NCBI GenBank assembly: GCA_947632115.1
Contig: CANROB010000006.1
Span: forward strand, 3,844 to 67,843
Length of the DNA stretch: 64,000 nt
Source: an uncultured Bacilli bacterium
Lineage (GTDB): Bacteria > Bacillota_I > Bacilli_A > RF39 > UBA660
Direction of reading: 5' to 3'
Shown here: piece after piece, positions 7,049-39,652 of the stretch
Numbering within the stretch: the stretch's first letter is position 1
How the letters are laid out: the number at the start of each line of letters is the position of its first letter
The notes under the pieces: generated by a model
Told to the model about the DNA's origin: nothing
The model's input: the letters and a program-made list of their open reading frames with translations, nothing else
Database searches by the model: none
Translations under genes and position numbers: made by a program

Positions 7049-8776
7049 ATGGAGAACAATTTAACATTAGTGATAGCAACTATCGTAATTGTTACCATCT
7101 TCTTAATTGTTGGTGTTATTTACTTTCTTCGTAGCAATCGCACCAAACGTATTAAAAAAATCTTAGAGAGATTGGAAATAGAAAAAAACCAAATTGATTC
7201 TTCGCCAATTGTTCCGGAATTAGCGAAGGTAGAAGCTATTTTAAATAATGAAAAATTAGAAGTCATGTATAAAGAATGGTCTAGCCGTCTTCAAAATATT
7301 AAGGATACCCAAATCCCTAAACTGACGGATATGATCTTAGATACCGAATATTCTTTGTCACAAAAAAGTTATAAGAATACTCTTTGTAAGTTAGCAAAAC
7401 TTGAAATGGAAGTTTATAAAGTAAGAACGAATTCCGAATTTTTATTAGGAGAAATTAAAGAGATTACTTCTAGTGAAGAACGAAGTAGGGAAGTAATTAC
7501 GGAATTTAAAGTTCGTTTTCGGGAATTACATCAAAAGTTTCAAAGTACGAAAAATGAATATGGACCAATGGCAGATGCAATCCAAAATCAGTTTGAAGTC
7601 ATTTCAAAAAGGTTTGAAGACTTTGAAACCATTATGGACAATAACGAATATACCGAGGTTAATGAAATTATTGGCATTATCAATGATTTACTAAAACATA
7701 TGTCAATCGTTATTGAAGAGGTTCCATCTATTGTGCTTTTAGCTTATAGTGTTCTTCCAAAGCGAATTCATGAAGTAGAAGAAGTCTATAATCGGATGGT
7801 AAAAGCAGGATATCCTCTTGATTATTTAAATGTCGAATATAATATTGATGAAGCAAATAAAAAAATTGGCGATATCATTGTTCGGGTTAAGAATTTAAAT
7901 CTAGAAGAAGGATTATTTGAATTAAAAGTATTACTAGATTATTTTGATTCTTTATTTAATGATTTTGAAAAAGAAAAAATTGCAAGAGCAACCTATGAAG
8001 ATACGAATGCAACTTTCCGCACGAAACTTTCCAAAATCAGTTCTGTTGTAGAAAACATTTTTGATCAGTTAGATGATATTAAAAACATCTATAATTTATC
8101 AGAGGAAGACATTGACGTTTTAAAAAAATTGTATGAGGATTTAAAAGAAGTAAGTGCGAATTACCAAGTACTTTTAGATCACACTTCTAATAATACGACA
8201 TTTGCTTATTCGAAACTCTTAAAAGAATTAGAAACACTTACTCTTTCCCTTGCCAAAATAGAGGATAAGTTAGATAATTCTTTAGATGCCATTGGTAGTA
8301 TGCGAGACGATGAACTTCGTGCCCGTCAACAGTTAGATGAAATTAAAGTGATTTTAAAAGATTCTAAGTTGCAGATGAGAAAATATAATCTTCCTTATAT
8401 CCCACAAAGTTATTATGTGGAATTAAAAGAAGCCATGAGTGCGATTCGGGAGATTGTAAGAGAGCTAGATAAAAAGCCAATTACGATTAGTGTGTTAAAT
8501 ACGAGAGTAGATACGGCAAGAGATCTTGTTTTAAAACTCTATACGAAAACAAAAGAACTTATCAGGATGGCTACTTTTGCGGAAACTGCTTTAGTATATA
8601 GTAACCGGTACCGTAGTAGTTATGAGGGATTAAGTAATAAATTAAATCTCTCCGAACAATTATTTTTAAAGGGAGAGTATCAAAAATCGTTAGAGCTTAC
8701 GATTAGTCTTTTAAATAAGATTGAACCAGGTGTCTACGATAAATTGATGTATTTATATAGTGGTGAAAGTAAGTAG
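7049..8776 (+). CDS. ezrA: Septation ring formation regulator EzrA
   Basis: N-terminal TM (LTLVIATIVIVTIFLIVGVIYFL), a ~540-aa coiled-coil body and a C-terminal YSNRYR patch. The neighbourhood (rpsD/tyrS/thiI) matches Bacillus. TGaTATACT at 7023-7031 overlaps the track ATG at 7022, so the ATG at 7049 with an AGGTGA Shine-Dalgarno is preferred. Confidence 0.8.
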   Translation: MENNLTLVIATIVIVTIFLIVGVIYFLRSNRTKRIKKILERLEIEKNQIDSSPIVPELAKVEAILNNEKLEVMYKEWSSRLQNIKDTQIPKLTDMILDTEYSLSQKSYKNTLCKLAKLEMEVYKVRTNSEFLLGEIKEITSSEERSREVITEFKVRFRELHQKFQSTKNEYGPMADAIQNQFEVISKRFEDFETIMDNNEYTEVNEIIGIINDLLKHMSIVIEEVPSIVLLAYSVLPKRIHEVEEVYNRMVKAGYPLDYLNVEYNIDEANKKIGDIIVRVKNLNLEEGLFELKVLLDYFDSLFNDFEKEKIARATYEDTNATFRTKLSKISSVVENIFDQLDDIKNIYNLSEEDIDVLKKLYEDLKEVSANYQVLLDHTSNNTTFAYSKLLKELETLTLSLAKIEDKLDNSLDAIGSMRDDELRARQQLDEIKVILKDSKLQMRKYNLPYIPQSYYVELKEAMSAIREIVRELDKKPITISVLNTRVDTARDLVLKLYTKTKELIRMATFAETALVYSNRYRSSYEGLSNKLNLSEQLFLKGEYQKSLELTISLLNKIEPGVYDKLMYLYSGESK

Positions 8777-8783
8777 GTGAATT

Positions 8784-10184
8784 ATGGAACCAAATGAAAA
8801 TGAATTTCACAATTCAGAACAACAATGGAATCATAGAAAAAAAAGTAGAAGAGAAAAAAGAAGAAATAAAGAAAATTCGATAGAACAAGAAATAGTAAAT
8901 ACTTCTTTAGAAGAGCCAAAACCCCCTGAAGAGAGCGTCGCTATAGCAGAATCTAGTAAAAATGAGCCCTTAGAAGAGGAGATTAAAGAAGAGGTACCAG
9001 ATACTCCCTTAGAGGAACCTAGACATGGTAAGGTAGAACTTCCTTTAGAAGATACTTCTTGTAATACTATAGAAGAGAAATTAGAAGAAAAAATAGAAGA
9101 ACCATTAAGAGAAGAAGGAAAAGCGTCTCTTAATAGTCATACAGAGACTTTAAATGATTTAGTCAAAGAAGTGCAAATCTTTTCGGATGATGATGAATTT
9201 TTCTTACCACAAAAAAAGGGAAAAGGTTGGATTTTCTTTTTCGTAATCCTTTTGGCTTTAATAGCAGGAGGACTTTGTTATTACTTCTTGGTTTATGAGA
9301 AAAAGGATACACCAGTGGAAGAGAAAAAAGAGGAAGCCCCATTAGATACGAATTATAGTTATGAGGAAAAAGAAGACTCTATTGATTTTTTAAAGGGACA
9401 AGAACTAGTAGATTCTTATCTTTGTAAAAAAACTTGTTCAGTTTATTCTTTGGGAAGATATCAATATCATAAAGATGGTGTTATTGCTCTTCAGGATGGC
9501 GAGGATATTTTCCTTTACGACTATATTCAAAAAGAAAAGATTAGTGATAACTATCTTAGCTTAAAAAATTTAGTAGAAGGAGATACAACTGTTTCTTTCC
9601 TTGCTGAAAAAGAAGAAGGATATGGCGTTATTTCTACAAAAGGAGAAGAGATTATTCCTTTTGAATATGAAGATATGGCTTATTCTTTTGGTGGCGGAGA
9701 TGTCAGTGATTATTCTTATGAAAAGAAAATCATTACAGCTAGTAAAGATGGAAAATGGGGACTTATTTCCCTAGAGGATGGGAAAGAAATTCTTCCTTTT
9801 GAATATGAAGATATTTATTATAGTGGTTATGATGCTATTGCTGTTCAAAAAGAGGGATTGTGGCATCTGTTAGATCTAGAAGGAAAAGAATTATTGAAAG
9901 ATGACTATGATATGATTATTCCTCTTAAAAGTTTTATTTTCGTTTCTAAAGATAAAAAATTTAATATCCTAAACTATGCTGGAGAAGAACAACTAAAAGA
10001 TACCATTCCTACTTATGTAAGTGGATTTAGAGGAAGAACTACTAGTCAAATTCCTACTTTTAAAATAGAAGTGGATAAGACAGTTGTTACTATCTACATT
10101 ATGGAAAACGCGGAAGATGAAAATGCTTATAGTACCTATAAATTCAACACTGTAAATGGGGAATTTACCAAAGTGATTTCCTAA
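8784..10184 (+). CDS. Membrane-anchored WG-repeat (KWG-like) protein
   Basis: E/K/P-rich N-terminal tail, a TM (WIFFFVILLALIAGGLCYYFLVY), then repeats of the type KDGKWGLISLEDGKEILPFEYEDI. Confidence 0.6.
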   Translation: MEPNENEFHNSEQQWNHRKKSRREKRRNKENSIEQEIVNTSLEEPKPPEESVAIAESSKNEPLEEEIKEEVPDTPLEEPRHGKVELPLEDTSCNTIEEKLEEKIEEPLREEGKASLNSHTETLNDLVKEVQIFSDDDEFFLPQKKGKGWIFFFVILLALIAGGLCYYFLVYEKKDTPVEEKKEEAPLDTNYSYEEKEDSIDFLKGQELVDSYLCKKTCSVYSLGRYQYHKDGVIALQDGEDIFLYDYIQKEKISDNYLSLKNLVEGDTTVSFLAEKEEGYGVISTKGEEIIPFEYEDMAYSFGGGDVSDYSYEKKIITASKDGKWGLISLEDGKEILPFEYEDIYYSGYDAIAVQKEGLWHLLDLEGKELLKDDYDMIIPLKSFIFVSKDKKFNILNYAGEEQLKDTIPTYVSGFRGRTTSQIPTFKIEVDKTVVTIYIMENAEDENAYSTYKFNTVNGEFTKVIS

Positions 10185-11819: not shown

Positions 11820-13232
11820 ATGAATTTACCAAATCTAAAAGAAGCTCAAAAAAGAACGCATAATAAAATTCCTTTTTTAGAAGAAGAATATGAAGTAAAT
11901 GATTCTTTAAAAGAATTAGGAAAAGGAAAATACTATTATATTCGTACCTATGGTTGTCAGATGAATGTCCATGACTCTGAGAATATCAAAGCCATTTTAG
12001 AGATGATGTCTTTTAAAGAAACGGATGAGTTAGAGAAGGCGGATTTTATTCTTTTAAATACTTGTGCGATTCGGGAAAATGCTCATAATAAAATGTTTGG
12101 CTTTTTAGGAAGAGTAAAGCATTTAAAAGAGGAAAAGCCAAGTATTATTACTGCTATTTGTGGTTGTATGGCCCAAGAAGAAAGCGTTGTAGATGCTCTT
12201 ATGAAAAAATATAAGTGGGTAGATATCGTTTTTGGTACCCATAATATTCATCATCTTCCTTATATCTTAGAGCGTTCTATGGCAAGACAAACACAAGAAA
12301 TTGAAGTTTTCAGTAAAGAGGGAGAAGTTATTGAAAATATTCCTGTAAAGCGGGATTCTAAATATAAAGCTTGGGTTAATATTATGTTTGGGTGTGATAA
12401 GTTCTGTACTTACTGTATTGTTCCCTATACAAGAGGAAAACAAAGAAGTAGAAAGCCTGAATGGATTGTAAAAGAAGTAGAAGATTTAGTAAAAAAGGGT
12501 TATCAAGAAGTAACCTTATTAGGTCAAAATGTAAATGCTTACGGAAAAGATTTAGAAAATCCTTGTAATATGGGAAATCTTCTAGAAATGATTGCTAAGA
12601 CAAATATTCCAAGAATTCGTTTTATGACAAGTCATCCTTGGGACTTTAATGATGAGATGATTGATGTCATTAGTAAATATGATAACATTATGCCTTATGT
12701 TCATCTTCCTTTACAAAGTGGCTCTGATCGCATTTTAAAATTAATGGGAAGAAGATATACGAAAGAAGAATATTTAAATTTAGTATCAAAATTAAAAGCG
12801 AAAATTCCTAATCTTGCCCTTACAACGGATATTATTGTAGGATTCCCAGGCGAGACAAGAGAAGATTTTGAAGAAACTTTAGATGTTGTAAAAATCTGTG
12901 AATATGATTCCGCTTTTACTTTTATCTTTTCTCCAAGAGAGGGAACACCAGCTGCGAAAATGGAAGATAAGACAACTCTAGAAGAAAAAAATGAACGGTT
13001 ACAAGAATTAAATGAACTTGTAAATGAATATGCCAATAAGAAGAATCAAGAATACTTAGGAAAAGTGGTCAAAGTTTTAATTGAAGGACCATCAGAAAAA
13101 GGAAACTTAATGGGATATACCGAGACCATGAAGTTAGTGAATGTTGATGGTAAGGAAGATTTGATTGGCAAAATTGTGGATGTAGAAATCACGAGTGTGA
13201 AGACATGGAGTTTAGATGGAAAAGTAGTGTAA
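11820..13232 (+). CDS. miaB: tRNA-i6A37 methylthiotransferase MiaB
   Basis: YYIRTYGCQMNVHDSE MTTase N-domain, the radical-SAM CDKFCTYC motif and a C-terminal TRAM domain. The ATG at 11820, downstream of the promoter, is preferred. Confidence 0.9.
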   Translation: MNLPNLKEAQKRTHNKIPFLEEEYEVNDSLKELGKGKYYYIRTYGCQMNVHDSENIKAILEMMSFKETDELEKADFILLNTCAIRENAHNKMFGFLGRVKHLKEEKPSIITAICGCMAQEESVVDALMKKYKWVDIVFGTHNIHHLPYILERSMARQTQEIEVFSKEGEVIENIPVKRDSKYKAWVNIMFGCDKFCTYCIVPYTRGKQRSRKPEWIVKEVEDLVKKGYQEVTLLGQNVNAYGKDLENPCNMGNLLEMIAKTNIPRIRFMTSHPWDFNDEMIDVISKYDNIMPYVHLPLQSGSDRILKLMGRRYTKEEYLNLVSKLKAKIPNLALTTDIIVGFPGETREDFEETLDVVKICEYDSAFTFIFSPREGTPAAKMEDKTTLEEKNERLQELNELVNEYANKKNQEYLGKVVKVLIEGPSEKGNLMGYTETMKLVNVDGKEDLIGKIVDVEITSVKTWSLDGKVV

Positions 13233-28965: not shown

Positions 28966-29403
28966 ATGAATGTCAATCAAGAGTTATTAGAATATATTTA
29001 TCAATCTAGTGAAATGGGAGTCGTTTCTCTTACTAATTTATTAAAAGATTTAAATGATAAAGAGAATAAACTAAAACCCGTTATTAGTGATGAATTAAGT
29101 TTCTATGAAAAGTATCAAAAGAAAAGTAAAAAACTCTTACAGGAAGAAAAGATTGAAATCAAAGAAAATTCGATGATGACCAAAATGATGTCAAAAATGG
29201 GAATTTCAAAGGAAGTAAAAAGTGACAACAGTGATGCATCGGTTGCGCATATGTTAATAGAAGGACTTACGATGGGCGTAGTTGACATGGAAAGTAAAAT
29301 CAAAAACTATGAGAAAGATGCCGATAAAAAAATTTTAAAACTTGCTTCTGATTATTTAAAATTTCAACAGGAAGAGATTGAAAAACTAAAAAAATATCTA
29401 TAA
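28966..29403 (+). CDS. Hypothetical helical protein
   Basis: 145-aa ORF with a GAGGTGGA RBS, predicted all-helical. I recognise no motif. Confidence 0.5.
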   Translation: MNVNQELLEYIYQSSEMGVVSLTNLLKDLNDKENKLKPVISDELSFYEKYQKKSKKLLQEEKIEIKENSMMTKMMSKMGISKEVKSDNSDASVAHMLIEGLTMGVVDMESKIKNYEKDADKKILKLASDYLKFQQEEIEKLKKYL

Positions 29404-29404
29404 A

Positions 29405-29430
29405 AAAGAAAGTTTTCAGCTTTCTTTTTT
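29405..29430 (+). terminator. Rho-independent terminator
   Basis: AAAGAAAG-ttttcag-CTTTCTTT hairpin running into a T-run. Confidence 0.7.
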
Positions 29431-29498
29431 CATGTGTTCCTAACCCGCACGCACTTTTTAGAAGTTTTTATGGTATAGTGAATTTAGGAGGGAAAACC

Positions 29499-30308
29499 AT
29501 GGATAAAGAAAAAATGGGATTGTTTATTGCAGAACTTAGAAAGGAAAAAGGATTAACACAAGAAGAACTGGCTCAACAGTTTTATGTAGACCGCGCAACG
29601 ATTTCAAAATGGGAAAAAGGATATTATATTCCTACTCCTGAAATGTTGTTAGAATTGAGTAACTTTTTTGGGATTACAGTGAATGAAATTCTTTTAGGAG
29701 AAAAGAAATCTGAGACGAATCAAGATGAAGTCAATAAAGTGACGGTTGAAATTTTGAAAAACCGGGATCAGAAAATAAAGAAAATTAGTTGGGTTAGTAT
29801 CTCTATTATCCTTCTTTTGATGATGGTAGGAGTAGGAACTTGTCTATTCTTCAAATTAGAATCTGACCGAAAACTAGCAGAAACCAAAAATTGGCTTCCA
29901 ACTTTGCGAGAAGGAGATGTTCCTTATTATTTAAAAAAGGATGATTTAGCCAATGATTTTACAAAGGAACATTTTCAAGCAGAAGATAAAGTAGATATTT
30001 ATATCAAAGGGGATTCTGTTCCACTAGAATATCAAGAAGAACCATTTATTACTAATATTGTCTTGAAGAGATTTACCAAAGAAAATGGTAAGTTAGAAAA
30101 AGAAGCTTCTGATTTCTTATATGTCTATTTTGGAATTGATAGTGAAGTCCAAAATTATTTAAAGAAATTTACCTATTTAAGTCAAAATACTTTTGAGGAC
30201 GCTAAATTCTATTTTGTAAAAAACAATTCCACTGATAGTAAATGTGAAGTCAATGCAAAACTAAAAAAACTACTAGATGAACAAATTGTCCAAGTAGAGG
30301 TTTCTTAA
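29499..30308 (+). CDS. XRE-family HTH protein with a TM helix and an extracytoplasmic domain
   Basis: FIAELRKEKGLTQEELAQQFYVDRATISKWEKG HTH motif and the TM helix ISWVSISIILLLMMVGVGTCLFF. AGGAGG 8 nt before the ATG at 29499. Confidence 0.75.
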   Translation: MDKEKMGLFIAELRKEKGLTQEELAQQFYVDRATISKWEKGYYIPTPEMLLELSNFFGITVNEILLGEKKSETNQDEVNKVTVEILKNRDQKIKKISWVSISIILLLMMVGVGTCLFFKLESDRKLAETKNWLPTLREGDVPYYLKKDDLANDFTKEHFQAEDKVDIYIKGDSVPLEYQEEPFITNIVLKRFTKENGKLEKEASDFLYVYFGIDSEVQNYLKKFTYLSQNTFEDAKFYFVKNNSTDSKCEVNAKLKKLLDEQIVQVEVS

Positions 30309-30311
30309 ACC

Positions 30312-30352
30312 AAAAAAAACAGAGAATGTTACCGTATTCTCTGTTTCTTTAT
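30312..30352. terminator. Bidirectional terminator between convergent genes
   Basis: ACAGAGAAT/ATTCTCTGT 9-bp stem flanked by A8 on one side and a T-rich run on the other. Confidence 0.65.
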
Positions 30353-31398
30353 TTTTTAATTAGAATAGCTAAATCATTTTTAGCAGTACTCATTCCATAA
30401 CCTGAATGATTGGTAGCTATTTCTTTGATTTCAAATTCTTTTTTTAAATCTTGTAAAAGATAATGGTAAGAAACATTTTGACCTGTCCAACCAGTAAAAT
30501 ATTTCTCTAACATATCAAGACCACTTAAGATATCTGAACTAGGTGCCCAACCATTAGGATCACTTTTTAGTTTTTCCTCAATAAAGGTATCTACTTCTTC
30601 ATCATATCGACAAAGATAAGCACCCATCATTATCCCGTGCTCTTTTAGTCTAGGAAGTAATACTTGTTTGATAAAAGTAGTATACTTTTTAGCGTTTTCC
30701 CGGCTTACTTCTTCTCCAAAATTTAAATACTCATAAATATTGGATAAGATGATACTATCATAATTCACTCCTTCTGGAAGCGTTTTTCCTAGGTCATAGA
30801 AATCACTTTCGATAAAATGCCAGTTTGCCTCTCGTACTCGTTTTTGGGTTTGATAATAAGTTTCATTATTGCGGTAATACCCATTAACGACTTGGGCAAG
30901 TTTTCCATGCTTCTTAGGAGAGCGGAATAACTCTTCTGATAAATAGTATGCATTATAACGAAAATATTCATATAAAATATCCCAAAAAAGACGAATCGGA
31001 AGAGCAAGTTCTTTTTGTACTTTTTGATAAAGACGATATTCCATGATATTTCCATTATTTTCAGCAATCATAAAATCTAGAAAATCTCTTCGACGGAGAG
31101 TTGCAAGCGCAACTCTTTTAAGTTCTAGAAAATAGATGTCCGCTTTATTGATATCAAAAAAATAAACATCTTTCGCGCCCTTTAAAGTAGCGGCAATTCC
31201 TTGATCAGCAGAAGCGCCAATTGTAAGAGTGGTATCAAAGGAAGAGGACATTTCTTCCGTATATGTCTTTACATCTTCTGTTGTGATATTGTAAAGACGG
31301 CAGTACCTTCCAAACTCACTATCCCAACCATCTCTTACGCCCTGAATCATCATAAGGGCATCTTTTTTTGCCTCTATCATATTTGGTAAAGTGATCAT
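30349..31398 (-). CDS. DUF3419 (BtaA-like, SAM-dependent methyltransferase fold) family protein
   Basis: TLTIGASADQGIAATLKGAKDVYFFDINKADIYFLELKRVALATLRRRDFLDFM matches the pattern I remember for DUF3419 (I.SaGdn...vDlN..Q..LleLK). Confidence 0.55.
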   Translation of the reverse strand: MITLPNMIEAKKDALMMIQGVRDGWDSEFGRYCRLYNITTEDVKTYTEEMSSSFDTTLTIGASADQGIAATLKGAKDVYFFDINKADIYFLELKRVALATLRRRDFLDFMIAENNGNIMEYRLYQKVQKELALPIRLFWDILYEYFRYNAYYLSEELFRSPKKHGKLAQVVNGYYRNNETYYQTQKRVREANWHFIESDFYDLGKTLPEGVNYDSIILSNIYEYLNFGEEVSRENAKKYTTFIKQVLLPRLKEHGIMMGAYLCRYDEEVDTFIEEKLKSDPNGWAPSSDILSGLDMLEKYFTGWTGQNVSYHYLLQDLKKEFEIKEIATNHSGYGMSTAKNDLAILIKK

Positions 31399-31490
31399 GT
31401 TCTACCCCCCCTAAAACTGCGGATTATTATAATAAGTTTTCTTCCAAAAGTCAAATGTTATGGTATAATAATTTTAGAAAGGGGATTCTT

Positions 31491-32168
31491 ATGATTAAAA
31501 CCAAAAAACAAGGATCTTTGATTATTATTTCTGGTACAACCTGTGCGGGAAAGGGAACGGTTATTAAAAAATTATTAGAACGTCATAACGATATTGTGTT
31601 ATCGATATCTTATACTTCTCGTCCAAAGCGGGAAAGTGAAGTAGATGGCGTTGATTATTATTTTGTGACAGAAGAAGAGTTTGAAAAGAAAATCGCTAAT
31701 GATGATTTTTTGGAATACGCGAAAGTACAATATGGAGCTTACTATGGAACACCAAAAGCGGAGATTATCAAGCAATTAGATACAGGAAAAGATGTCATCT
31801 TAGAAATCGATGTACAAGGTGCGAAACAAATTAAAGAAAAATTTCCAGAAACCATTTTAATCTTTATTATGGCTCCTAGTATGGAAGAAGTAAAAAGAAG
31901 AATTGAAATGCGAGGAGATGAAAATCAGGAACAGATTATCTCTCGCTTTAAAAGGGCTTATCAGGAGATTAATCAGTATACGAATTATAACTATGTCGTT
32001 GTCAATGACGACCTAAAGGAGTCTGTTGATAAAGTAGAAGCAATTTTAGTAAGTGAGAAACTCAGAGTAGATCGTATTGAAGAACTCTCTTTAGAAAATG
32101 AAGAAGAGATGATTCACGAACTTTTAATGGAAAAAGATTTTCCAAATGAACATATACAAATTCAATAA
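31491..32168 (+). CDS. gmk: Guanylate kinase-like protein
   Basis: P-loop SGTTCAGKGT, YTSRPKRESEVDGVDYYFV (the GMP-binding S.T.R..R..E..G.dY.F pattern) and FLEYAKVQYGAYYGT. AAAGGGGA RBS. TGgTATAAT at 31461-31469 lies inside the track ORF that starts at 31455. Confidence 0.75.
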   Translation: MIKTKKQGSLIIISGTTCAGKGTVIKKLLERHNDIVLSISYTSRPKRESEVDGVDYYFVTEEEFEKKIANDDFLEYAKVQYGAYYGTPKAEIIKQLDTGKDVILEIDVQGAKQIKEKFPETILIFIMAPSMEEVKRRIEMRGDENQEQIISRFKRAYQEINQYTNYNYVVVNDDLKESVDKVEAILVSEKLRVDRIEELSLENEEEMIHELLMEKDFPNEHIQIQ

Positions 32169-32181
32169 AAAGGAGTAGTTT

Positions 32182-34044
32182 ATGGTATTTAAGTGTAAGA
32201 TGTGTGGGGGAGATATTGAACTAGTAGAGGGTACAAATACGGGTAAGTGTTTGTATTGTAAAAGCACAATGACTCTACCTACTGTAGAGGATGAAAGAAT
32301 TCTAAACTTATACAATCGAGCAAATGATTTACGACTAGAAAATGAGTTTGATAAAGCTTATGCAACGTATGAATCTATTTTGGAGTTAGATAATGAACAA
32401 GTAGAGGCTCATTGGGGATTAATCTTATGTAAATATGGAGTAGAGTATGTAGATGACCCTAAGACTAAAAAGAAAATTCCTACTTGCCATAGGACCAATT
32501 ATGAATCTATTTTCGATGATGTTCATTACAAAGTAGTAAAAGAAAAATCTTATGGCGAAGCTTTGAAACTCTATGAAAAAGAAGCGAAAAAGATTCAAGA
32601 TATTCAAAAAGGAATTCTAGAGATTTCCTCTAAGGAAGAGCCTTATGATATCTTTATCTGTTATAAGGAGACGGATAATAATGGAGAAAGAACCCATGAT
32701 AGCGTTATGGCAGAAGATATCTATGAAGCCTTAACAAAAGAAGGGTATAAAGTTTTCTTCTCTAGAATTACCCTAGAAGATAAATTAGGAACAGAATACG
32801 AACCTTATATCTTCTCTGCTTTAAATAGTGCGAAAGTGATGTTGGTTGTTGGAACATCTTCTGAAAACTTAGAGGCAGTATGGGTAAAAAATGAGTGGAG
32901 TCGTTATTTAGACTTTATGAAAAAGGATAAATCGAAAACGCTTATTCCTGTTTATAGTAAAATGGATGCTTATAAACTTCCAGAAAGTTTTGCGATGTTG
33001 CAAGCTCAAAATATGGATAAAGTAGGGGCAATGCAAGATCTTGTTCGTGGTATTAAAAAGATTATGAATGCCAAAAAAGAAACTAAATCATCCAATGTCA
33101 CGGAAGAGATGTATCACCAGTTTAAAGAGCGTATGGAAGATGAAGAAAGCTCTGTGATTGGAAATGAAAAGCGATATGCTACCAATGTTTTAAAGGAAAA
33201 AATAGGAAAAGGGTTTATTGGAATTACTTTATTAGTATCTTTCCTAATGGCAATTTGGATGGCAGGATTTTTAGCTTCCTATACAATATCTAATTCAGTA
33301 GGATCCTTCCGATATAGTGACGTTTTGGCATATACTTTTCGGGAGAGGGCTAGTCTCATTCAGATAACTGTTGGATTTATTACTTTAATTTCCTTTTTTA
33401 TAGGGCTTTTATCTAGAAAGATGAATAAGGTATCTAAAATTTTATATCTCGTTAATTTTGCTTTAGAAGGTTATTTTTTATTTTTGATTCATTCTTGTGG
33501 ATTTAAGTCAAGTGCTTACATTTTGATTTTAGTTGGTCTTAATTTAATTTTATTCTTATTAAGACCAAGATGGCAGTTATCGACTAATATGTTGATGTTG
33601 AATAAGAAGAATAAGGAAATGCAAGAAGAGAAAAATAGAAAGTTAAAAGAAAAATTTGTCGAAAAAGAAAAGTTTGCCATTCACCCTATATTTTATGGAG
33701 TAGCATTCATTCTACTACTCTTCATTGGCTTTCAGTTAATAAGACCTGTTCCTATTCAATCCAATAAGAGAAATTCAAAGATAGATCAGATTAAAGTTCT
33801 TGAACAAATGGATTTATATGAAAATACACAAGATAGTTGGAGACATTCCGTAGCTACTTTATTTCCTGGAGAAATTTATGATGTGATTAGTACACGTATT
33901 GACGAGGATGGGTATCAACGGTCAATAGAAATTCAAACGAGTTTAGGAGTTCATGGCTATATCGCATCTCAATATAGTTCCTGTGTTAACGGAGAATGTG
34001 AGTATAGTGATGACCGTTTTCAAATTTTACCTAAAGAAGAGTAA
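32182..34044 (+). CDS. Zn-ribbon / TIR domain / 5-TM / C-terminal SH3b-like membrane protein (paralog 1)
   Basis: CKMCGG...CLYCKS ribbon. TIR-like core at residues ~155-290: YDIFICYKETD, KVFFSR, VMLVVGTSS, WVKNEWSRYL. Five hydrophobic helices between residues ~345 and 525. The C-terminal IYDVIS...GVHGYIASQY is SH3b-like. Confidence 0.8.
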   Translation: MVFKCKMCGGDIELVEGTNTGKCLYCKSTMTLPTVEDERILNLYNRANDLRLENEFDKAYATYESILELDNEQVEAHWGLILCKYGVEYVDDPKTKKKIPTCHRTNYESIFDDVHYKVVKEKSYGEALKLYEKEAKKIQDIQKGILEISSKEEPYDIFICYKETDNNGERTHDSVMAEDIYEALTKEGYKVFFSRITLEDKLGTEYEPYIFSALNSAKVMLVVGTSSENLEAVWVKNEWSRYLDFMKKDKSKTLIPVYSKMDAYKLPESFAMLQAQNMDKVGAMQDLVRGIKKIMNAKKETKSSNVTEEMYHQFKERMEDEESSVIGNEKRYATNVLKEKIGKGFIGITLLVSFLMAIWMAGFLASYTISNSVGSFRYSDVLAYTFRERASLIQITVGFITLISFFIGLLSRKMNKVSKILYLVNFALEGYFLFLIHSCGFKSSAYILILVGLNLILFLLRPRWQLSTNMLMLNKKNKEMQEEKNRKLKEKFVEKEKFAIHPIFYGVAFILLLFIGFQLIRPVPIQSNKRNSKIDQIKVLEQMDLYENTQDSWRHSVATLFPGEIYDVISTRIDEDGYQRSIEIQTSLGVHGYIASQYSSCVNGECEYSDDRFQILPKEE

Positions 34045-34056
34045 GAGGAGTAGTTT

Positions 34057-36150
34057 ATGATATTGAAGTGTAAGATGTGTGGGGGAGATATTGAACCGAT
34101 AGAAGGAACGAATACCGGTAAGTGTATCTACTGTAAAAGTGTTATGACACTTCCCTCATTAGAAGATGAAAAAATAGTAAATTTATATAATCGTGCGAAT
34201 AAATTGCGATTAGATAATGAGTTTGATAAAGCTTATGAAATCTATGAATCCATTTTAAAAATGGATGAAGAACAAGTAGAAGCCCACTGGGGATTAGTCC
34301 TTTGTAAGTATGGAATTGAATATGTAGATGATCCTAGAACTAAGAAAAAAGTACCTACTTGTCATCGTGCCAATTATGAATCTGTTTTAGTCAATTCTGA
34401 TTATCTTTTTGTTAAAGAACATTCTTATGGTGAGGCATTAAAGTTATATGAAGAAGAAGCTAAATATATTCAAAAGGTTCAAAAAAGAATCTTAGATATT
34501 TCATCCAAAGAAGAACCTTATGATATCTTTATCTGTTATAAGGAAACTGATAGTGATGGAGAAAGAACAAAAGATAGTGTGCTTGCGCAAGATATTTATC
34601 AGGCTTTAACAAAAGAAGGATATAAGGTTTTCTTTTCAAGAATTACCTTAGAAGATAAACTAGGAACAGAATATGAACCTTATATCTTCTCAGCTTTAAA
34701 TAGTGCGAAAGTAATGTTGGTGGTTGGAACGTCTTCTGAAAATTTAGAGGCAGTGTGGGTAAAAAATGAGTGGAGCCGTTACTTAAGCTTCATGAAAGAG
34801 GATACTTCTAAATCTTTAGTACCTGTTTATAGTAACATGGATGCTTATGAACTTCCTGAGGCATTTTCAATGTTACAAGCCCAAAATATGGATAAAGTAG
34901 GGGCAATGCAGGACCTTGTTCGTGGTATCGAAAAGTTGATGTCTTCTACCAAAACAAAGAAGAAACAGTCTTTAGATAAGAAGACAACAAAGCAAGTTCA
35001 AGAAGTATTAGAAGGAATCACTAGTTTAGGAAATAATCGATATGAGGTTACGATTGTAAAGGAAAAAAGAGCGACTTGGTATTATGTTTTTGTTATCGTA
35101 GTAGTTTCTATTTTCTTGTTTAATAGTTTGCTTGCTGTAGCTGGAGGAAATGGCGGATTTTCCATTGGACTTTCAGATACTCAGGAAATGTTATTCAATA
35201 TTTTAGTTGGAAGTAGGAGTTTAAATTACGTTTCTGATGGATTAGTAGCTTTACAATTTTTAATTTGTGTTACGATGGTTGTTTCCGGATTCCTTAAGAT
35301 GCGTACGCGTAAACTAGTTCGTATCTCTAATTATGTAATGCTTGGTACTTTTCTTTTAGAATTTATTTTAATAGAAATTTCTATGAAATACTTCGCTATC
35401 CCTTGTATCCTTTATTGGTTTACGGTTTCTTTATCTTTTATTCTCTTTTTGGTCAATCCTTCTTGGAATCTAGATACTAGTACGAAAACGATTGTTGAAG
35501 GAGAAGAAAAAGACAAATTATTAGTAAAAAATAAAGCGATTCGGGAGAATTTTACGAAAAAAGATAAATTTCCTCTTCTAAAAAAGTGCTTTATTCTTGG
35601 AATGGTGTTGTGTATTGTTATTTATGGAGGGACATTCTTCCATACGATTTTATCTAAATATGGAAATGCTCGTGATGAATCTAAGGCCCAGATGGAAATT
35701 GTTTCTTCCTATATGGCTGTAAGAGATGACTATAATCAGGTCGTAGGAATTGCGAAAAAAGGGGAAATTTATACGATTTTATCCATTTCCTATGATCGCT
35801 CTGAGTCATGTTTTGAAATCGAACAAAGTAATCACGTGAAAGGAACTATTTGTGGAAGTGCAGCAAGCTTTAAAATGTTAGCTGGACAGGGAAATGAAAG
35901 AGATACCTCTTTAAGACAATTAGAGGTTACTTATGATTTTATTCGCATTCGAGGAGAAAGTTCTATTTATGGCGATATTTTAGGACAGGTTTCTGAAGGA
36001 GAAATTTATACGATTTTAGAAGATAAAAAACAGTATGATGGAACACACTGGTATAAAATTAAAACAAATTATGGTTTAACAGGATATATTTATTCTGGAG
36101 ATGATGGTGAGTATGTAAAAGTATTAGAGCCAGAGAAAGGAGAAAAGTAA
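34057..36150 (+). CDS. Zn-ribbon / TIR domain / 5-TM / two C-terminal SH3b-like modules (paralog 2)
   Basis: Same N-terminal ~300 aa as paralog 1, including an identical 56-aa stretch. Divergent TM block. The C-terminus has two SH3b-like units (GEIYTILS...VKGTICGS and GEIYTILE...GLTGYIYS). Confidence 0.8.
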   Translation: MILKCKMCGGDIEPIEGTNTGKCIYCKSVMTLPSLEDEKIVNLYNRANKLRLDNEFDKAYEIYESILKMDEEQVEAHWGLVLCKYGIEYVDDPRTKKKVPTCHRANYESVLVNSDYLFVKEHSYGEALKLYEEEAKYIQKVQKRILDISSKEEPYDIFICYKETDSDGERTKDSVLAQDIYQALTKEGYKVFFSRITLEDKLGTEYEPYIFSALNSAKVMLVVGTSSENLEAVWVKNEWSRYLSFMKEDTSKSLVPVYSNMDAYELPEAFSMLQAQNMDKVGAMQDLVRGIEKLMSSTKTKKKQSLDKKTTKQVQEVLEGITSLGNNRYEVTIVKEKRATWYYVFVIVVVSIFLFNSLLAVAGGNGGFSIGLSDTQEMLFNILVGSRSLNYVSDGLVALQFLICVTMVVSGFLKMRTRKLVRISNYVMLGTFLLEFILIEISMKYFAIPCILYWFTVSLSFILFLVNPSWNLDTSTKTIVEGEEKDKLLVKNKAIRENFTKKDKFPLLKKCFILGMVLCIVIYGGTFFHTILSKYGNARDESKAQMEIVSSYMAVRDDYNQVVGIAKKGEIYTILSISYDRSESCFEIEQSNHVKGTICGSAASFKMLAGQGNERDTSLRQLEVTYDFIRIRGESSIYGDILGQVSEGEIYTILEDKKQYDGTHWYKIKTNYGLTGYIYSGDDGEYVKVLEPEKGEK

Positions 36151-36151
36151 T

Positions 36152-37294
36152 ATGGCATTATTCGAGGTAATCAAAAAAGAAAAAGATGATGATAATTTTA
36201 TATGGCGATATCCCAATACAAAATTTAATACGAGTTCACAATTAATTGTTCATGAAGGACAAGAAGCTATCTTTTTTAGCAATGGAAAAGCATTAGATTT
36301 ATTTGGACCTGGTAAATATACGCTAGAGACTAATAACATTCCTTTGCTTCGAAAAGTAATCGAGATTCCAACTGGTGGAAAAAGTCCTTTCCAATGTGAA
36401 GTATACTTTGTGGATAAAGTGGAAAAATCTATGCGTTGGGGAACGAAGAGTCGGTTAGAGTTTTTAGAGCCAAAATATCAATTTCCAATTTCTATTGGAG
36501 CCTGTGGCGAGATGCGTTTTATCATTGAAGATTCTAGAAAAATCTTGTTAAAACTAGTTGGTGTGAAAAAACAATTAGATAGTGAAAATATCGATGATTT
36601 CTTTGAGTCACAAATTTTAATGAAAGTTAAAAATTACATGGCTCAAATTATTACCGAAGAGAAGATTAGTATTTTTGAAATTGATCAACAACTAGAAAAG
36701 TTTAGTGAAGAACTAAAGAAAAAACTAGAAGCTGATTTCCAAGAGTTTGGAATTAAATTAAATAAATTCTTTGTCACAACGATTGCGAAACCAGAAGATG
36801 ATAAACGCTATCTAGAATTTAAAGAATTATACTTTAAACAATCCGTTGCTCTAGCAGAGGCTGAATTAAAGCAAAAGTTAGAGTTGATTGAGGAAGATAC
36901 AAAAGCGAAAAAGGTAGTGATGTCTTCTCAAGCGGAAGCTACGAAACGGAGTCAAGAAGGTTATACTTATCAAGAAGAGAAAGCTTATCAGATAGGTCAA
37001 AAAGTAGCGGAAAATCAAGCAGTTGGTCAATTTACTAATGTGGGTGTTGGCCTTGGAATGATTAGTGGCATGGGAGGAACCATCAGCAATCAAGTTAGTA
37101 AAGAAGTAACGGGTGCTTTTGCAACTCTTAACAATGTCGTTTGTCCAAATTGTCACAAGGAATTAGAAAAAGATACTGCTTTTTGTAAATATTGTGGTAC
37201 GAAGATTGTGACCGAAAAATATTGTGGAAAATGTGGAGCAAGCCTTTCAGCAGATGCTGCCTTTTGTTCTCACTGTGGGGAAAGGATAGGTTAA
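36152..37294 (+). CDS. SPFH/Band-7 domain protein with two C-terminal zinc ribbons (COG4260, YdjI-like)
   Basis: MALFEVIKKE...FIWRYP...LIVHEGQEAIFF.NGK N-terminus, typical of the YdjI/virion-core-like SPFH family. A coiled-coil follows, then CPNCHKE..CKYCG and CGKCGAS..CSHCG. The start is 1 nt after the upstream stop. Confidence 0.75.
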   Translation: MALFEVIKKEKDDDNFIWRYPNTKFNTSSQLIVHEGQEAIFFSNGKALDLFGPGKYTLETNNIPLLRKVIEIPTGGKSPFQCEVYFVDKVEKSMRWGTKSRLEFLEPKYQFPISIGACGEMRFIIEDSRKILLKLVGVKKQLDSENIDDFFESQILMKVKNYMAQIITEEKISIFEIDQQLEKFSEELKKKLEADFQEFGIKLNKFFVTTIAKPEDDKRYLEFKELYFKQSVALAEAELKQKLELIEEDTKAKKVVMSSQAEATKRSQEGYTYQEEKAYQIGQKVAENQAVGQFTNVGVGLGMISGMGGTISNQVSKEVTGAFATLNNVVCPNCHKELEKDTAFCKYCGTKIVTEKYCGKCGASLSADAAFCSHCGERIG

Positions 37295-37295
37295 T

Positions 37296-38573
37296 ATGAA
37301 AAATAAAAAATTAATCCTCTTATCAAGTGTTGTTATCTTTGCTATTACGCTACTGATTTTGTTTGTCCTACCATACGAAGGAAAGAATTTTAAAATTATT
37401 ACATCAAGGGATAGTGATGCTTACCAATATGCGAAAAAAGAATCCATCCAAGTAGAAGAGGTTGCTGATTCAGAAAAAGATTTTTATACGGAAAAGAAAG
37501 AAAACTTTTCTTATGATCGCTATCAAGAGGGGATTGTCATTACCGGCTATCAAGGAAAGAGCAAGGAATTAGTAATTCCTAAAATGATTGATGGAAAGTT
37601 TGTTCTTGCTATTCAAAAAGATGCTTTCAAAAACGATGAAAATTTAACCAAAGTCATTTTTCCAAAAACGTTATTGATGATTGAAAAAGAAGATTATAAA
37701 GAAATAGAAATTGCTTGTTATCGCTCTAGTCTTTGTAATGAATTAAAAGAAGATGATGATTTTAAAGTAACGGTTTTAAGTGATTCTGATACATATTCTT
37801 TTACAGATTCTTCTTTAACTTTTGAATATAATATTGGAGATTCTATTGAAATTGTAAAATATACAGGTTCTTCTTTAGATATTGTTATTCCAGAAACGAT
37901 TAATGGTTATGAAGTAACAGAGGTTCACTTAACCGTAGAGAAAGATTTAAATAGTATTTATTTACCAAAAACAGTAACCAATATGAGTCTTCAATACGCT
38001 GAAAAAGTTTATCCTAGTACTTTTTGGTTTACAGTAGTAATGACATTCATTAGTTTACTTCTCTTTATTGGGGTAATGATTTCTGCATCTTTAAAAGATA
38101 AGAAAGATATCTTCTATCAAGCTCCTATTATGATGATTTCTTATCTTTACTTAATTGGTATTTATGGTTACTCTATTTATGCAAATGTGACAAACCAAAA
38201 TATGAAAACGGTGATTTTGGTTCAAGTAATAGTCGCGCTTCTTTATCTAGTTTTAGCGATGTTCTTATTAGCTAGTAAAAAACGAATTAGAGATTATGAT
38301 GAAAAAATCGCTAAAAGTACCTCTTATATCCAAGATACGTTAGAATTATTGGAAGAGATAGATTTATCCAATTATGAGGAAGAGATTAAAAGAGAAGTAG
38401 AAGAGGTAAAAGAACTTATTCGCTACTCAGATCCTGTTACAAGTCCAAAAACAGAGGATATGGAACAACAAATTCAAAAAATGATTCAAGAGTGTGGAAA
38501 CGAAAAAGAGGATTGGGAAAAAGTCAAAGCGACGATTAAAAAGAGAAATCGTATATGTAAGGAAAGTAAATAA
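37296..38573 (+). CDS. BspA-type leucine-rich-repeat membrane protein with a cytoplasmic coiled-coil tail
   Basis: N-terminal anchor. LRR_5-like units (LVIPKMIDGKFVLAIQKDAFKN..NLTKVIFPKTL; LDIVIPETINGYEVTEV). Three further TM helices and a helical acidic C-terminus. The start is 1 nt after the upstream stop. Confidence 0.65.
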   Translation: MKNKKLILLSSVVIFAITLLILFVLPYEGKNFKIITSRDSDAYQYAKKESIQVEEVADSEKDFYTEKKENFSYDRYQEGIVITGYQGKSKELVIPKMIDGKFVLAIQKDAFKNDENLTKVIFPKTLLMIEKEDYKEIEIACYRSSLCNELKEDDDFKVTVLSDSDTYSFTDSSLTFEYNIGDSIEIVKYTGSSLDIVIPETINGYEVTEVHLTVEKDLNSIYLPKTVTNMSLQYAEKVYPSTFWFTVVMTFISLLLFIGVMISASLKDKKDIFYQAPIMMISYLYLIGIYGYSIYANVTNQNMKTVILVQVIVALLYLVLAMFLLASKKRIRDYDEKIAKSTSYIQDTLELLEEIDLSNYEEEIKREVEEVKELIRYSDPVTSPKTEDMEQQIQKMIQECGNEKEDWEKVKATIKKRNRICKESK

Positions 38574-38598
38574 AGTATATTTTCGAATATACTTTTTT
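38573..38598 (+). terminator. Rho-independent terminator closing the TIR operon
   Basis: AAGTATATT-ttcg-AATATACTT 9-bp stem followed by T6. Confidence 0.8.
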
Positions 38599-38643
38599 CT
38601 TTTCTTTCTTTAGGAATTGATATATAATGAAAATGGTGATTCT

Positions 38644-39243
38644 ATGGGAAAGAAATATGATAGTTTAAATCGCCTTCGTGAAGCGGGTATTAATGTTCAT
38701 GAATATCAAAGCCTTTCTTCTTTAGAAGAATTAGAAGAGTATGCTCATCAAAATCTTAGTTTTTCGATTCGCTTTGATCGAGATACCAATTATCATCAAC
38801 TTCCTTTTTATACGTATGATGAAATCAATTTTTCTCTTGAGGAAAGAGAAGCATATTTAAAGAGAATAGCAGAAGAAGCTGCTTCTTTAGACTGTACGAT
38901 GTTAGTATCGAATGGACATCAGTATGATGCAATAGAGCGTTGTAATTTTGTGATGAGAATAGAAAGTGATTCTTCTTTTTTGTTAGAATATGGTACAACG
39001 AAAGTACCTCTACGCAATATGTATGAATATCCAACTTCTATTATCCGTGGGACGTTAAGTGATGAGGTCAAAAATATGGATTGGATAAATAAAGAAAAGA
39101 ATGATTTAACGGTTAAGGAAGTAGAAGAAATTTTATCTTGGGTGATGAGACTTCAAATCAAGAATAAGACGATTGAAGGAACGTTATACGAAAAACCAGT
39201 AGGGGTAAAAAAAGAAAAAATTGTCTGCTGGCAGATTGACTAG
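38644..39243 (+). CDS. Hypothetical protein
   Basis: A promoter-like TTGATATATAAT at 38617-38628 overlaps the track start, so the ATG at 38644 with a GGTGA Shine-Dalgarno is preferred. No motif recognised. Confidence 0.5.
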   Translation: MGKKYDSLNRLREAGINVHEYQSLSSLEELEEYAHQNLSFSIRFDRDTNYHQLPFYTYDEINFSLEEREAYLKRIAEEAASLDCTMLVSNGHQYDAIERCNFVMRIESDSSFLLEYGTTKVPLRNMYEYPTSIIRGTLSDEVKNMDWINKEKNDLTVKEVEEILSWVMRLQIKNKTIEGTLYEKPVGVKKEKIVCWQID

Positions 39244-39256
39244 AAAGAGGGATTGT

Positions 39257-39652
39257 GTGAAGTTTGAAAAGTCCTGTGGGGCGGTTGTTTTTGATGAGGA
39301 AAAGGTTTTAGTGGTAAAACATCAAGCAGGCCATATTGATTTTCCAAAAGGTCATATGGAAGAAGGGGAAACCGAAGAAGAAACTGCTATCCGAGAGGTC
39401 AAAGAAGAAACCAATATCGATATTACTTTAGAGAATGCCAAATGTTCGATTCACTATTTACCAAAACCTGGTGTTCAAAAAGAAGTCGTTTTCTTTTTAG
39501 CCTATAAAAAATCGGGAACTATTCGTCCTCAATTAGAGGAAGTAAAAGAAGTTTCTTGGGTTAACTGTGATGAAGTGATGAATATTCTTACTTTTGATAC
39601 AGCAAGAGAAGTATTTCAAAAAATGTTACAAGAAAAAACTGCTAATCATTAG
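39257..39652 (+). CDS. NUDIX hydrolase
   Basis: Nudix box GHMEEGETEEETAIREVKEETNI. GTG start at 39257 after an AGAGGGA Shine-Dalgarno. Confidence 0.75.
   Translation: MKFEKSCGAVVFDEEKVLVVKHQAGHIDFPKGHMEEGETEEETAIREVKEETNIDITLENAKCSIHYLPKPGVQKEVVFFLAYKKSGTIRPQLEEVKEVSWVNCDEVMNILTFDTAREVFQKMLQEKTANH

Follow-up and report, generated by a model that had tools for sequence, protein, structure and literature searches.

A system built around TIR-domain proteins was identified in a 64,000-nucleotide stretch of contig CANROB010000006.1 from an uncultured Bacilli bacterium (this whole stretch is hereafter the window), where four adjacent genes at positions 32182 to 38573 encode two sensor-TIR proteins, an SPFH protein ending in zinc ribbons and a protein with four transmembrane (TM) helices. 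The module looks like an undescribed, widespread, membrane-associated TIR system of gut Firmicutes, with a role that is probably immune. Animals, plants and bacteria all use TIR domains in innate immunity, and to our knowledge every bacterial TIR system that has been characterised is cytoplasmic. While TIR-based sensor systems as such are known, the obligatory partnership with an SPFH and a four-TM protein and the partly extracellular sensors are new. The original prediction, made from the sequence of the window alone, had as its central idea an undescribed TIR module with an SPFH scaffold and membrane partners, and this idea is well supported by gene linkage across genomes, by the fold of the TIR domains and by scans for known systems.

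Genes 1 and 2 (32182-34044 and 34057-36150) encode sensor-TIR paralogues of 620 and 697 amino acids (aa), the first with a zinc ribbon, a TPR-like linker, a TIR domain, five predicted TM helices and a putative outward SH3b-like module, the second with two SH3b-like modules. Gene 3 (36152-37294) encodes a soluble YdjI-like SPFH protein of 380 aa, and gene 4 (37296-38573) a protein of 425 aa with an anchor, a TpLRR/BspA-like ectodomain, three further TM helices and a cytoplasmic helical tail. All four open reading frames (ORFs) lie on the + strand, separated by 12, 1 and 1 nucleotides (nt), and a recheck of the ORFs reproduced exactly the coordinates, strand and spacing first reported. A strong Shine-Dalgarno site precedes each of the four genes.

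The preferred reading, to which a probability of about 0.42 was assigned, is that the TIR proteins form an array of NADase sensors docked on an SPFH/four-TM platform, with NAD+ depleted by the TIRs themselves; the data show the gene linkage, the domain identities, the pattern of conservation, the catalytic motif and the predicted topology, and we infer the physical complex, the NADase activity, the trigger and the output. If this reading is true, bacterial TIR biology would gain a branch that is organised at the membrane and possibly senses the surface, SPFH/YdjI-type scaffolds would have a concrete client, and receptor-TIR signalling platforms a prokaryotic analogue. A common system of human and animal gut commensals, carried by at least 581 species genomes, would then stand unannotated.

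Conserved linkage of the three components

The head of the sensor-TIR proteins, consisting of the zinc ribbon, the linker and the TIR domain, is present in at least 581 species genomes, one genome having been scanned per species. Among the matches listed, the carriers are uncultured gut Bacilli and many Clostridia, the latter comprising Lachnospiraceae, Oscillospiraceae, Ruminococcus, Acutalibacteraceae, Christensenellales, Blautia, Lacrimispora and Pseudoflavonifractor, together with single metagenome-assembled genomes (MAGs) labelled Holophagales and Gastranaerophilaceae. Full-length homologues of the sensor-TIR proteins are abundant and bear in public records only the labels 'TIR domain-containing protein' or 'hypothetical'. 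Full-text literature searches, most of them directed at a link between TIR and SPFH, found no description of a TIR-SPFH module, and neither SPFH nor zinc ribbons nor SH3 come up in the main text of a 2025 TIR survey from the Sorek laboratory (10.64898/2025.12.03.692087).

Linkage was counted in the best 78 species loci of the scan with the TIR head. An SPFH gene lies at most 5 kb from the TIR gene in 58 of these 78 loci, and in 29 of the 36 loci flanked by 5 kb or more on each side; an iterated hidden Markov model of the gene-4 core matches 52 of the 58 loci with SPFH. A reciprocal scan of metagenomes was seeded from a closer subset of the gene-4 core alignment, and the SPFH gene was found immediately upstream of the gene-4 core in 49 of 51 loci. 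When at least 3 kb was available on both sides, SPFH was present in every locus (37/37) and a zinc-ribbon TIR gene in 33 of 37, and the four loci lacking it start in incomplete ORFs of the RCC1 or TPR type, which resemble cut TIR genes. The linkage of TIR genes with the SPFH and gene-4 families, which the original prediction had proposed to examine in other genomes, is thus strongly conserved with either seeding.

The order of the genes is TIR (one or several), SPFH and gene-4-like in Bacilli, and mostly SPFH, gene-4-like and TIR (one or several) in Clostridia; since the order differs between the two classes, the linkage has survived rearrangement. Three diverged loci contain one to three TIR genes, a Band_7_1 gene and then a protein of 300-413 aa with no Pfam match, and their flanks are unrelated. 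A compact version of three genes is present in Lacrimispora sp. AGF001 (locus L052; SPFH 380 aa, four-TM protein 229 aa, TIR 552 aa), and other cultured carriers include Pseudoflavonifractor capillosus An827, Eubacterium sp. MSJ-21, Blautia sp. and Lachnospiraceae NE2001. The conserved unit is therefore one of three components, namely the TIR sensor or sensors, the SPFH protein with zinc ribbons and the four-TM core with its helical tail. The gene families first described as a four-gene module are indeed linked, but the number of genes is not fixed, with TIR genes varying from one to four.

Adjacency of the four genes by mere chance or local synteny, without a functional unit, was rejected as scarcely credible. 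Some genes around the module, including the guanylate kinase gene gmk and the NUDIX gene, are clearly unrelated passengers, as such an explanation would have it. Against it, the linkage spans two classes, different gene orders and unrelated flanks, holds when seeded from the TIR or from the four-TM family, and is accompanied in the window by 1-nt intergenic gaps, each with a ribosome-binding site.

A phage-borne element was likewise rejected, with a single relative among 2.9 million viral contigs. This sole match (L086, IMGVR_UViG_3300023505_000289) has zinc-ribbon TIR and SPFH genes at 8001-8891 and 12263-12943, near the end of a 42.5-kb contig, and may represent either host DNA next to a prophage or a rare case of mobilisation of the module. 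Flanking genes recur in some chromosomes. In one Bacilli sub-clade, Polysacc_deac_1 genes bracket the module on both sides, and in another the module is directly upstream of hrcA-grpE-dnaK (observed in loci L001/L026, L021, L022, L025 and L031); these neighbours may be a matter of synteny or point to a functional tie with modification of the wall.

Sensor-TIR proteins and their membrane partners

The TIR domain of gene 1 (32644-33069, aa 155-296) was matched by Pfam TIR_2 (PF13676) with 43.6 bits over aa 157-277, and that of gene 2 (34519-34944) with 40.6 bits, the cut-off of the family being 28 bits. An AlphaFold2 (AF2) model of the gene 1 protein, built from a 76-sequence alignment, reached a mean predicted local distance difference test score (pLDDT) of 83.7. 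Foldseek matched this model, always with a probability of 1.00, to SARM1 (TMt 0.66-0.70), AbTir, SPARTA TIR-APAZ, MyD88 and SNC1, and the structure of AbTir with an NAD analogue was matched at a TMt of 0.76 and an rmsd of 3.3 Å. The TIR fold originally proposed is therefore borne out by profile searches for both genes and by the model of gene 1.

A WxxxE motif occurs in both TIR domains, at 32881-32895 in gene 1 (W234-E238) and at 34756-34770 in gene 2. The sequence W234-V-K-N-E238 is invariant in 76 Bacilli-clade and 10 Clostridial proteins, and when a TIR-only profile was compared with the PDB, E238 was placed opposite the Glu of the WCxxEL motif of two plant TIRs, SNC1 and L6. Both NADase activity and production of cyclic ADP-ribose (cADPR) depend on the C-helix WxxxE, which in AbTir is W204/E208 (PMC10641520). 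Glu238, which had been named beforehand as a residue to mutate, is the glutamate of the invariant motif. Sequence and model together support the view that these TIR domains carry the fold and the catalytic signature of NADases.

The head begins with a CxxC...CxxC zinc ribbon (32194-32259 in gene 1, aa 5-26), three of whose cysteines, C8, C23 and C26, never vary; the fourth, C5, is constant among 24 homologues and present in at least 90% of 76. The linker completes the region 32182-32643, and within it a Cys/His cluster at aa 77-103 surrounds a predicted beta-hairpin. In the 24-homologue alignment C83 and C102-H103 are invariant and H77 nearly so, C83 being retained in at least 90% of the 76-sequence alignment, and these four residues may form a second metal site. 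Searches of PDB sequences with the head alone and with a full-length profile returned only a TPR-like motif and weak SH3b matches.

The membrane block of gene 1 (33202-33747), defined from hydropathy, the AF2 model and loop charge, comprises five TM helices, the last of which is set apart from the first four by a Lys-rich cytoplasmic loop (aa 460-501). Genes 1 and 2 share this predicted topology, with the N-terminus inside and the C-terminus outside. The same three lines of evidence agree with the helix counts proposed earlier, five for genes 1 and 2 and one plus three for gene 4. Beyond the last helix, gene 1 has an extracytoplasmic beta-rich module (33748-34041; AF2 strands at aa 536-616) that is homologous to the first outer module of gene 2. 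A Pfam scan gave no SH3 match for the gene 1 module; most full-length homologues of gene 1 carry SH3_3 (PF08239), and from these relatives and the beta-rich end of the model it appears to be SH3b-like. The C-terminal SH3_3 domain of gene 2 (35944-36099, aa 630-681) scored 33.5 bits against a cut-off of 27. Of the SH3-like modules predicted at the outset, that of gene 2 was hence confirmed by Pfam, whereas that of gene 1 went uncalled and is put forward from homology and the model. SH3b modules act as peptidoglycan binders in lysostaphin-type enzymes.

The two paralogues of the window are 87% identical in the TIR domain and 75% in the zinc ribbon and linker, and only 25-30% in the TM block and ectodomain. 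This division is general in the family, as the C-terminal halves of 108 paralogues contained TPR (27), SH3_3 (23), RCC1-like propellers (20), DUF6273 (15), LRR_5 (7) and LRR_8 (5), with single cases of WG and RHS repeats. Many Clostridial paralogues are single-pass proteins of the order TIR, TPR, TM and DUF6273, which is predicted to place DUF6273 outside; others have no predicted TM helix and carry TPR, RCC1, WG or DUF6273, and soluble and single-pass TIR genes are often paired in one Clostridial locus. The envelope sensing first suggested as the theme of the module is plausible for this window, as a lineage-specific trait, but it is not a theme of the whole family, because the SH3b and gene-4 LRR ectodomains are confined to the Bacilli clade and many Clostridial TIR proteins have no TM helix.

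There are one to four TIR paralogues per locus, and their number differs even between genomes that are 96% identical. The nearest relative of the window locus, L008, from a rabbit-gut MAG labelled 'uncultured Bacilli', shares 96.2% DNA identity over genes 1-4 (window 32149-38600 aligned with L008:9968-16419, and window 29001-33059 with L008:4645-8705). An extra TIR paralogue of 710 aa separates gmk from gene 1 there, and the breakpoint falls within the roughly 900 nt that are conserved in the 5' part of the TIR genes. This suggests that copy number changed by unequal recombination or gene conversion between tandem TIR paralogues.

Gene 3 is composed of a Band_7_1 domain (PF13421; 36200-36814), a Gly/Met-rich linker (37019-37132) and two zinc ribbons (37133-37288, aa 328-379). 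Band_7_1 scored 134.9 bits against a cut-off of 24, and the ribbons were matched by Zn_Ribbon_1 and DZR of Pfam, all in agreement with the earlier assignment to YdjI-like SPFH/Band-7 proteins with two C-terminal zinc ribbons. Hydropathy revealed no TM helix or hydrophobic segment, and a PDB search no relative at the sequence level. All SPFH partners end in a Gly/Met-rich linker followed by an array of zinc ribbons, from one to at least six copies. In L045 (15658-17664), L056 (493-2502) and other Clostridial SPFH proteins the ribbons are near-identical repeats of the form WDCxCGQxGxxGxFCxNCGAKKP, up to six or more, and the number of repeats differs widely among species. At least four Clostridial SPFH partners (L113, L116, L134 and L136) have zinc ribbons at the N-terminus too.

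The ectodomain of gene 4 (37380-38015) is followed by three TM helices (38016-38279) and a cytoplasmic helical tail (38280-38570) that includes the motif RYSDP (38421-38435). In the AF2 model (pLDDT 86.2), the sole confident Foldseek match of the ectodomain was TpLRR of T. pallidum (6mlx), with an E value of 4.6e-4, a probability of 1.00 and a TM-score of about 0.3. Pfam LRR_5 remained sub-threshold (14.8 bits against a cut-off of 27.7), and a profile of the ectodomain also matched proteins annotated as LRR_5. The BspA-type LRR proposed for gene 4 is suggested by the structural match to TpLRR, with Pfam below its cut-off, and the ectodomain is consistent with a repeat unit of the BspA/TpLRR class. 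In giant proteins of 1000-8000 aa the same profile finds 8-35 repeated stretches; there are thousands of such proteins, so that total match counts do not size the gene-4 family.

The core of the gene-4 family consists of four TM helices and the helical tail; two of its motifs, [KR]YSDP and, at the C-terminus, (K/E)RN..CK..K, are nearly invariant. Clostridial homologues, of about 230 aa, consist of the core only, and by sequence comparison the LRR-like ectodomain is an addition of the Bacilli clade. The TM bundle and tail gave no Foldseek match to known pore or effector folds. In some Clostridial loci (L113:3506-5383, L116:3506-5383 and L045:17643-19568) a protein of 625-642 aa, without similarity to the TIR head, is encoded between the SPFH and four-TM genes; the copies of L113 and L116 start with a CxxC...CxxC zinc ribbon, and that of L045 has no Pfam match. 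It may be a TIR-less alternative client of the same platform.

Proposed mechanism and relation to known systems

The NADase sensor array preferred here would be made of three components. The first would be one to four sensor-TIR paralogues with a near-invariant cytoplasmic head and a hypervariable C-terminal half, the second an SPFH protein of the YdjI type, soluble and ending in a Gly/Met-rich linker and a zinc-ribbon array (gene 3), and the third a four-TM protein whose cytoplasmic helical tail carries RYSDP (the core of gene 4), to which a TpLRR-like ectodomain would have been added in this clade. The SPFH and four-TM proteins would form a platform beneath the membrane, by analogy with B. 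subtilis YdjI, which needs YdjG and YdjH, and the conserved zinc ribbon-linker heads of the TIR sensors would dock on it. Binding of a ligand by the variable sensor domain would then alter TIR-TIR packing, the likely cue in this window being a cell-wall or surface signal read by the SH3b and LRR modules. Cleavage of NAD+ at Glu238 would lead to NAD+ depletion and growth arrest, most likely as an anti-phage or other conflict response. The TIRs are favoured as the effectors on account of their size and their fusion to sensors, which they share with SARM1, SPARTA and TIR-NLR proteins. The role of the SPFH/four-TM pair is assigned by analogy only, because neither protein has a known effector or signal-binding domain.

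Defence-type genes are found inside modules elsewhere, including FRG, SIR2_2/AbiH-like, HEPN and DUF4760 genes, four DUF2971 genes, and matches to PDC-S15 and PDC-S31, both of which are single-gene defence candidates. A set of 113 flanking proteins, from sampled flanks and with no background comparison, contained strong matches to AbiLi (4, best 5e-84), AriA (4), mad3 (6) and PDC-S02 (2). These neighbours are suggestive, as guilt by association, of an immune role. A constant head joined to exchangeable sensor halves, in paralogues that are gained or lost between close relatives, likewise recalls the pattern of immune receptors. DUF2971 accounts for 4 of the 30 scanned genes lying inside modules (loci L032-L085), and may be a facultative fourth component.

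Several observations weigh against an immune NADase array. Bacilli and Clostridia share about 60% identity in the head (aa 1-296), an unusual degree of conservation for an immune protein. Defence-type neighbours occur at some loci only, the context in the window is one of housekeeping genes, and a MAG chromosome as small as 1.52 Mb has retained the module. Neither the SPFH nor the four-TM protein contains a known effector or signal-binding domain, sequence-level alignments to solved TIRs are weak (E 0.03-0.26), and PADLOC and NCBIfam scans of the four proteins produced only weak matches at the TIR level. In PADLOC these were RT-TIR_XII and PDC-S66 alone, with E values of about 3e-4, and in NCBIfam Thoeris_type3_ThcB4 reached 18.8-21.4 bits against a cut-off of 220. 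As anticipated, no PADLOC model covers the module, and no NCBIfam model does so either.

The known TIR systems were considered in turn. Thoeris membership was rejected, with the family model far below its cut-off and no adjacent effector having SLOG, Macro or SIR2-type domains in Pfam, PADLOC or NCBIfam. Membership in CBASS, SPARTA or TIR-STING was also rejected, no cyclase, short Argonaute or STING being present in the operon or its immediate neighbours, and so was membership among retron-TIR systems, for which there was only the weak PADLOC match. The earlier statement that the partners of known TIR systems are missing is correct for the operon and the immediate neighbours scanned.

A Thoeris-like variant was still weighed, in which the TIRs would make a cADPR-type or other NAD-derived signal and the SPFH/four-TM pair would be the effector, a gated membrane channel or disruptor regulated by the SPFH protein, much as other membrane proteins are regulated by SPFH proteins; this is unlikely. 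In Thoeris a single effector gene is accompanied by one thsB gene or by several, and the module likewise has a variable number of TIR paralogues (1-4) with WxxxE beside an invariant partner pair. The presence of the four-TM protein whenever SPFH is present (37/37) is what would be expected of an essential output module. The logic from sensor through NAD+ chemistry to growth arrest is plausible for both. In addition, the tryptophan of WxxxE has been linked to production of cADPR isomers (PMC10641520), and the Sorek-laboratory preprint reports that many Thoeris effectors are TM proteins or domains of unknown function (10.64898/2025.12.03.692087). On the other hand, genes 3 and 4 contain no SLOG, Macro, SAVED or STING-type signal-binding domain, the Thoeris models of NCBIfam remain at less than a tenth of their threshold, and the gene-4 bundle and tail resemble no known pore or effector fold. 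The module also differs from Thoeris in lacking SIR2 or any other known effector, in having SPFH-zinc ribbon and four-TM/helical-tail proteins as partners, and in its mostly being found outside obvious defence islands. Its TIR proteins are large fusions, unlike the typical small ThsB, with a zinc ribbon-linker head and swappable sensors, many of them membrane-spanning.

In B. subtilis, YdjI is an SPFH protein that has a Zn finger, lacks TM helices and is soluble (PMC8581546); it reaches the membrane only by way of the adjacent membrane proteins YdjG and YdjH and then recruits PspA (PMC8581546; PMC11237479). The N-terminus of YdjG, as translated from a published primer, is a zinc ribbon, MIISYKCPNC (PMC8581546; PMC11237479). 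The module resembles this system in its Band_7_1 SPFH protein without TM helix, with a low-complexity linker and C-terminal zinc ribbon(s), and in the adjacent genes for membrane proteins, one of which starts with a zinc ribbon. It differs in that no TPM-domain YdjH or NTF2-like YdjG was found among the Pfam matches, the partners being instead TIR proteins and the four-TM/RYSDP protein. Membership in the PspA-YdjGHI system was rejected, there being no TPM domain among the Pfam matches on module genes and no PspA-like match in the 2.19 Mb of the 166 loci plus the window, the latter a weak test made with an approximate query.

The module might nevertheless be a non-immune, YdjI/Psp-like device of envelope homeostasis, in which the TIR heads would be oligomerisation scaffolds or local NAD-linked regulators and the SH3b and LRR modules would monitor wall integrity in growing cells; this is doubtful. 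Gene 3 shares its Pfam family and architecture with YdjI of the sigma-W/PspA envelope stress response, and when YdjG or YdjH is deleted, wall synthesis is no longer properly regulated under stress (PMC8581546). An envelope function would also fit the housekeeping context of the window, the hrcA-grpE-dnaK genes or polysaccharide deacetylases adjoining the module in other Bacilli, the strong purifying selection on the cytoplasmic head, the retention of the module in a 1.52-Mb genome and its near absence from viral contigs (1 in 2.9 million). However, a pure scaffold would not need the invariant WxxxE. The wholesale swapping of sensors, many of them cytoplasmic, the shifts in paralogue number between near-identical genomes and the defence-type genes inserted inside modules likewise argue against it, as does the lack of a PspA-like gene near any of the 166 loci, within the limits of the approximate query.

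The NADase sensor array has further parallels among characterised proteins. Its TIR domains share the fold (TMt 0.66-0.76) and the C-helix WxxxE with those of SARM1, AbTir, SPARTA TIR-APAZ and plant TNL proteins, where the TIR is also fused or coupled to a sensor and activation is expected through oligomerisation. The differences lie in a sequence identity of 12-19%, in the absence of ARM/SAM, Argonaute or NB-ARC partners from the module, and in the zinc ribbon and TPR-like head and the SPFH/four-TM partnership, which the module alone possesses. The GAP1-N2 GTPases have N-terminal zinc ribbons, an enzyme domain, four plus one TM helices and, after the last of these, a peptidoglycan-binding SH3b (Kaur et al., 2020, eLife, PMC7159879), a membrane layout equal to that of the sensor-TIR proteins in the window; their enzyme is a GTPase and not a TIR, and their partners are GAP1, FNIII, tubulin and vWA proteins, with no SPFH.

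With Toll-like and IL-1 receptors the likeness is an architectural analogy only, consisting of an extracellular binder (SH3b, or LRR_5 or DUF6273 in relatives), a membrane span and a cytoplasmic TIR. The polarity of the module is opposite, with the TIR N-terminal and inside and the sensor C-terminal and outside; its motif is intact, unlike that of an adaptor-only TIR, there is no homology beyond the TIR, and MyD88-type adaptors are absent. It can be suggested, tentatively, that the module is a bacterial counterpart of a Toll-like-receptor platform, with TIR receptors of swappable extracellular or cytoplasmic sensors (SH3b, LRR, DUF6273, RCC1 or TPR) docked through their zinc ribbons on a flotillin-like SPFH cage and the four-TM protein, and with an NAD-derived output, evoked when bound ligand makes the TIRs cluster, that gates the membrane partner. 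Such a counterpart would, with the same reserve, be a new class of TIR-based immunity or surveillance, missed by defence-island searches owing to its core-genome contexts.

Transcription unit and genomic context

Upstream of the module, gmk, encoding guanylate kinase (31491-32168, + strand; Pfam Guanylate_kin 169.8 bits), ends 13 nt before the start of gene 1. The ORF list places its start at ATG 31455, inside an extended -10 promoter, and the true start is probably ATG 31491, with AGAAAGGGG as its ribosome-binding site. The probable promoter (31442-31469, + strand; TTCCAA, 16 nt, TGgTATAAT) was recognised by direct reading of the sequence and is not among the + strand sites of a consensus promoter scan. 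Given this short distance, the lack of an intervening terminator and the extended -10 promoter that gmk itself possesses, gmk and genes 1-4 of this genome probably form a single transcription unit of five genes. A gmk gene upstream of the module occurs only in the closest relatives, L008 and L009, and it is probably a co-transcribed passenger outside the conserved module.

The 'strong terminator' first reported at 38573-38598 turned out to be a weak, AT-rich 10-bp hairpin (-6.4 kcal/mol in RNAfold), which a consensus terminator scan did not call; with the T-rich run that follows it forms a putative intrinsic terminator (38573-38612, + strand). The scan returned one weak terminator-like site within gene 2 (35623-35644), where no internal terminator had been noticed before, but its 7 sites, against 4.5 +/- 2 expected, are at chance level.

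The neighbouring genes in the window are of a housekeeping kind, including an AddAB-like nuclease/helicase, an ABC transporter, HtpG, NUDIX and a P-type ATPase, and no integrase was found among the neighbours scanned, in agreement with the context described earlier. GC content is flat over the region (0.32-0.33), with no anomaly. Just downstream of the module, at 38617-39652, a 208-aa ORF without family match overlaps the gene of a NUDIX hydrolase (Pfam 71 bits) by 23 nt. NUDIX was considered as an ADP-ribose-related partner of the TIR system and rejected, since the NUDIX gene and the 208-aa ORF adjoin the module in no other locus. On similar grounds gmk, NUDIX, the 208-aa ORF, DUF3419 and HTH were discarded as parts of the system, their conservation extending at most to the nearest relatives. 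At this same downstream edge L008 contains an insertion that is absent from the window, a 431-aa ORF on the minus strand (L008:16449-17741) between the gene-4 homologue and the downstream region. Window 38583-38639 matches L008 17826-17882, and the inserted ORF may be a mobile element.

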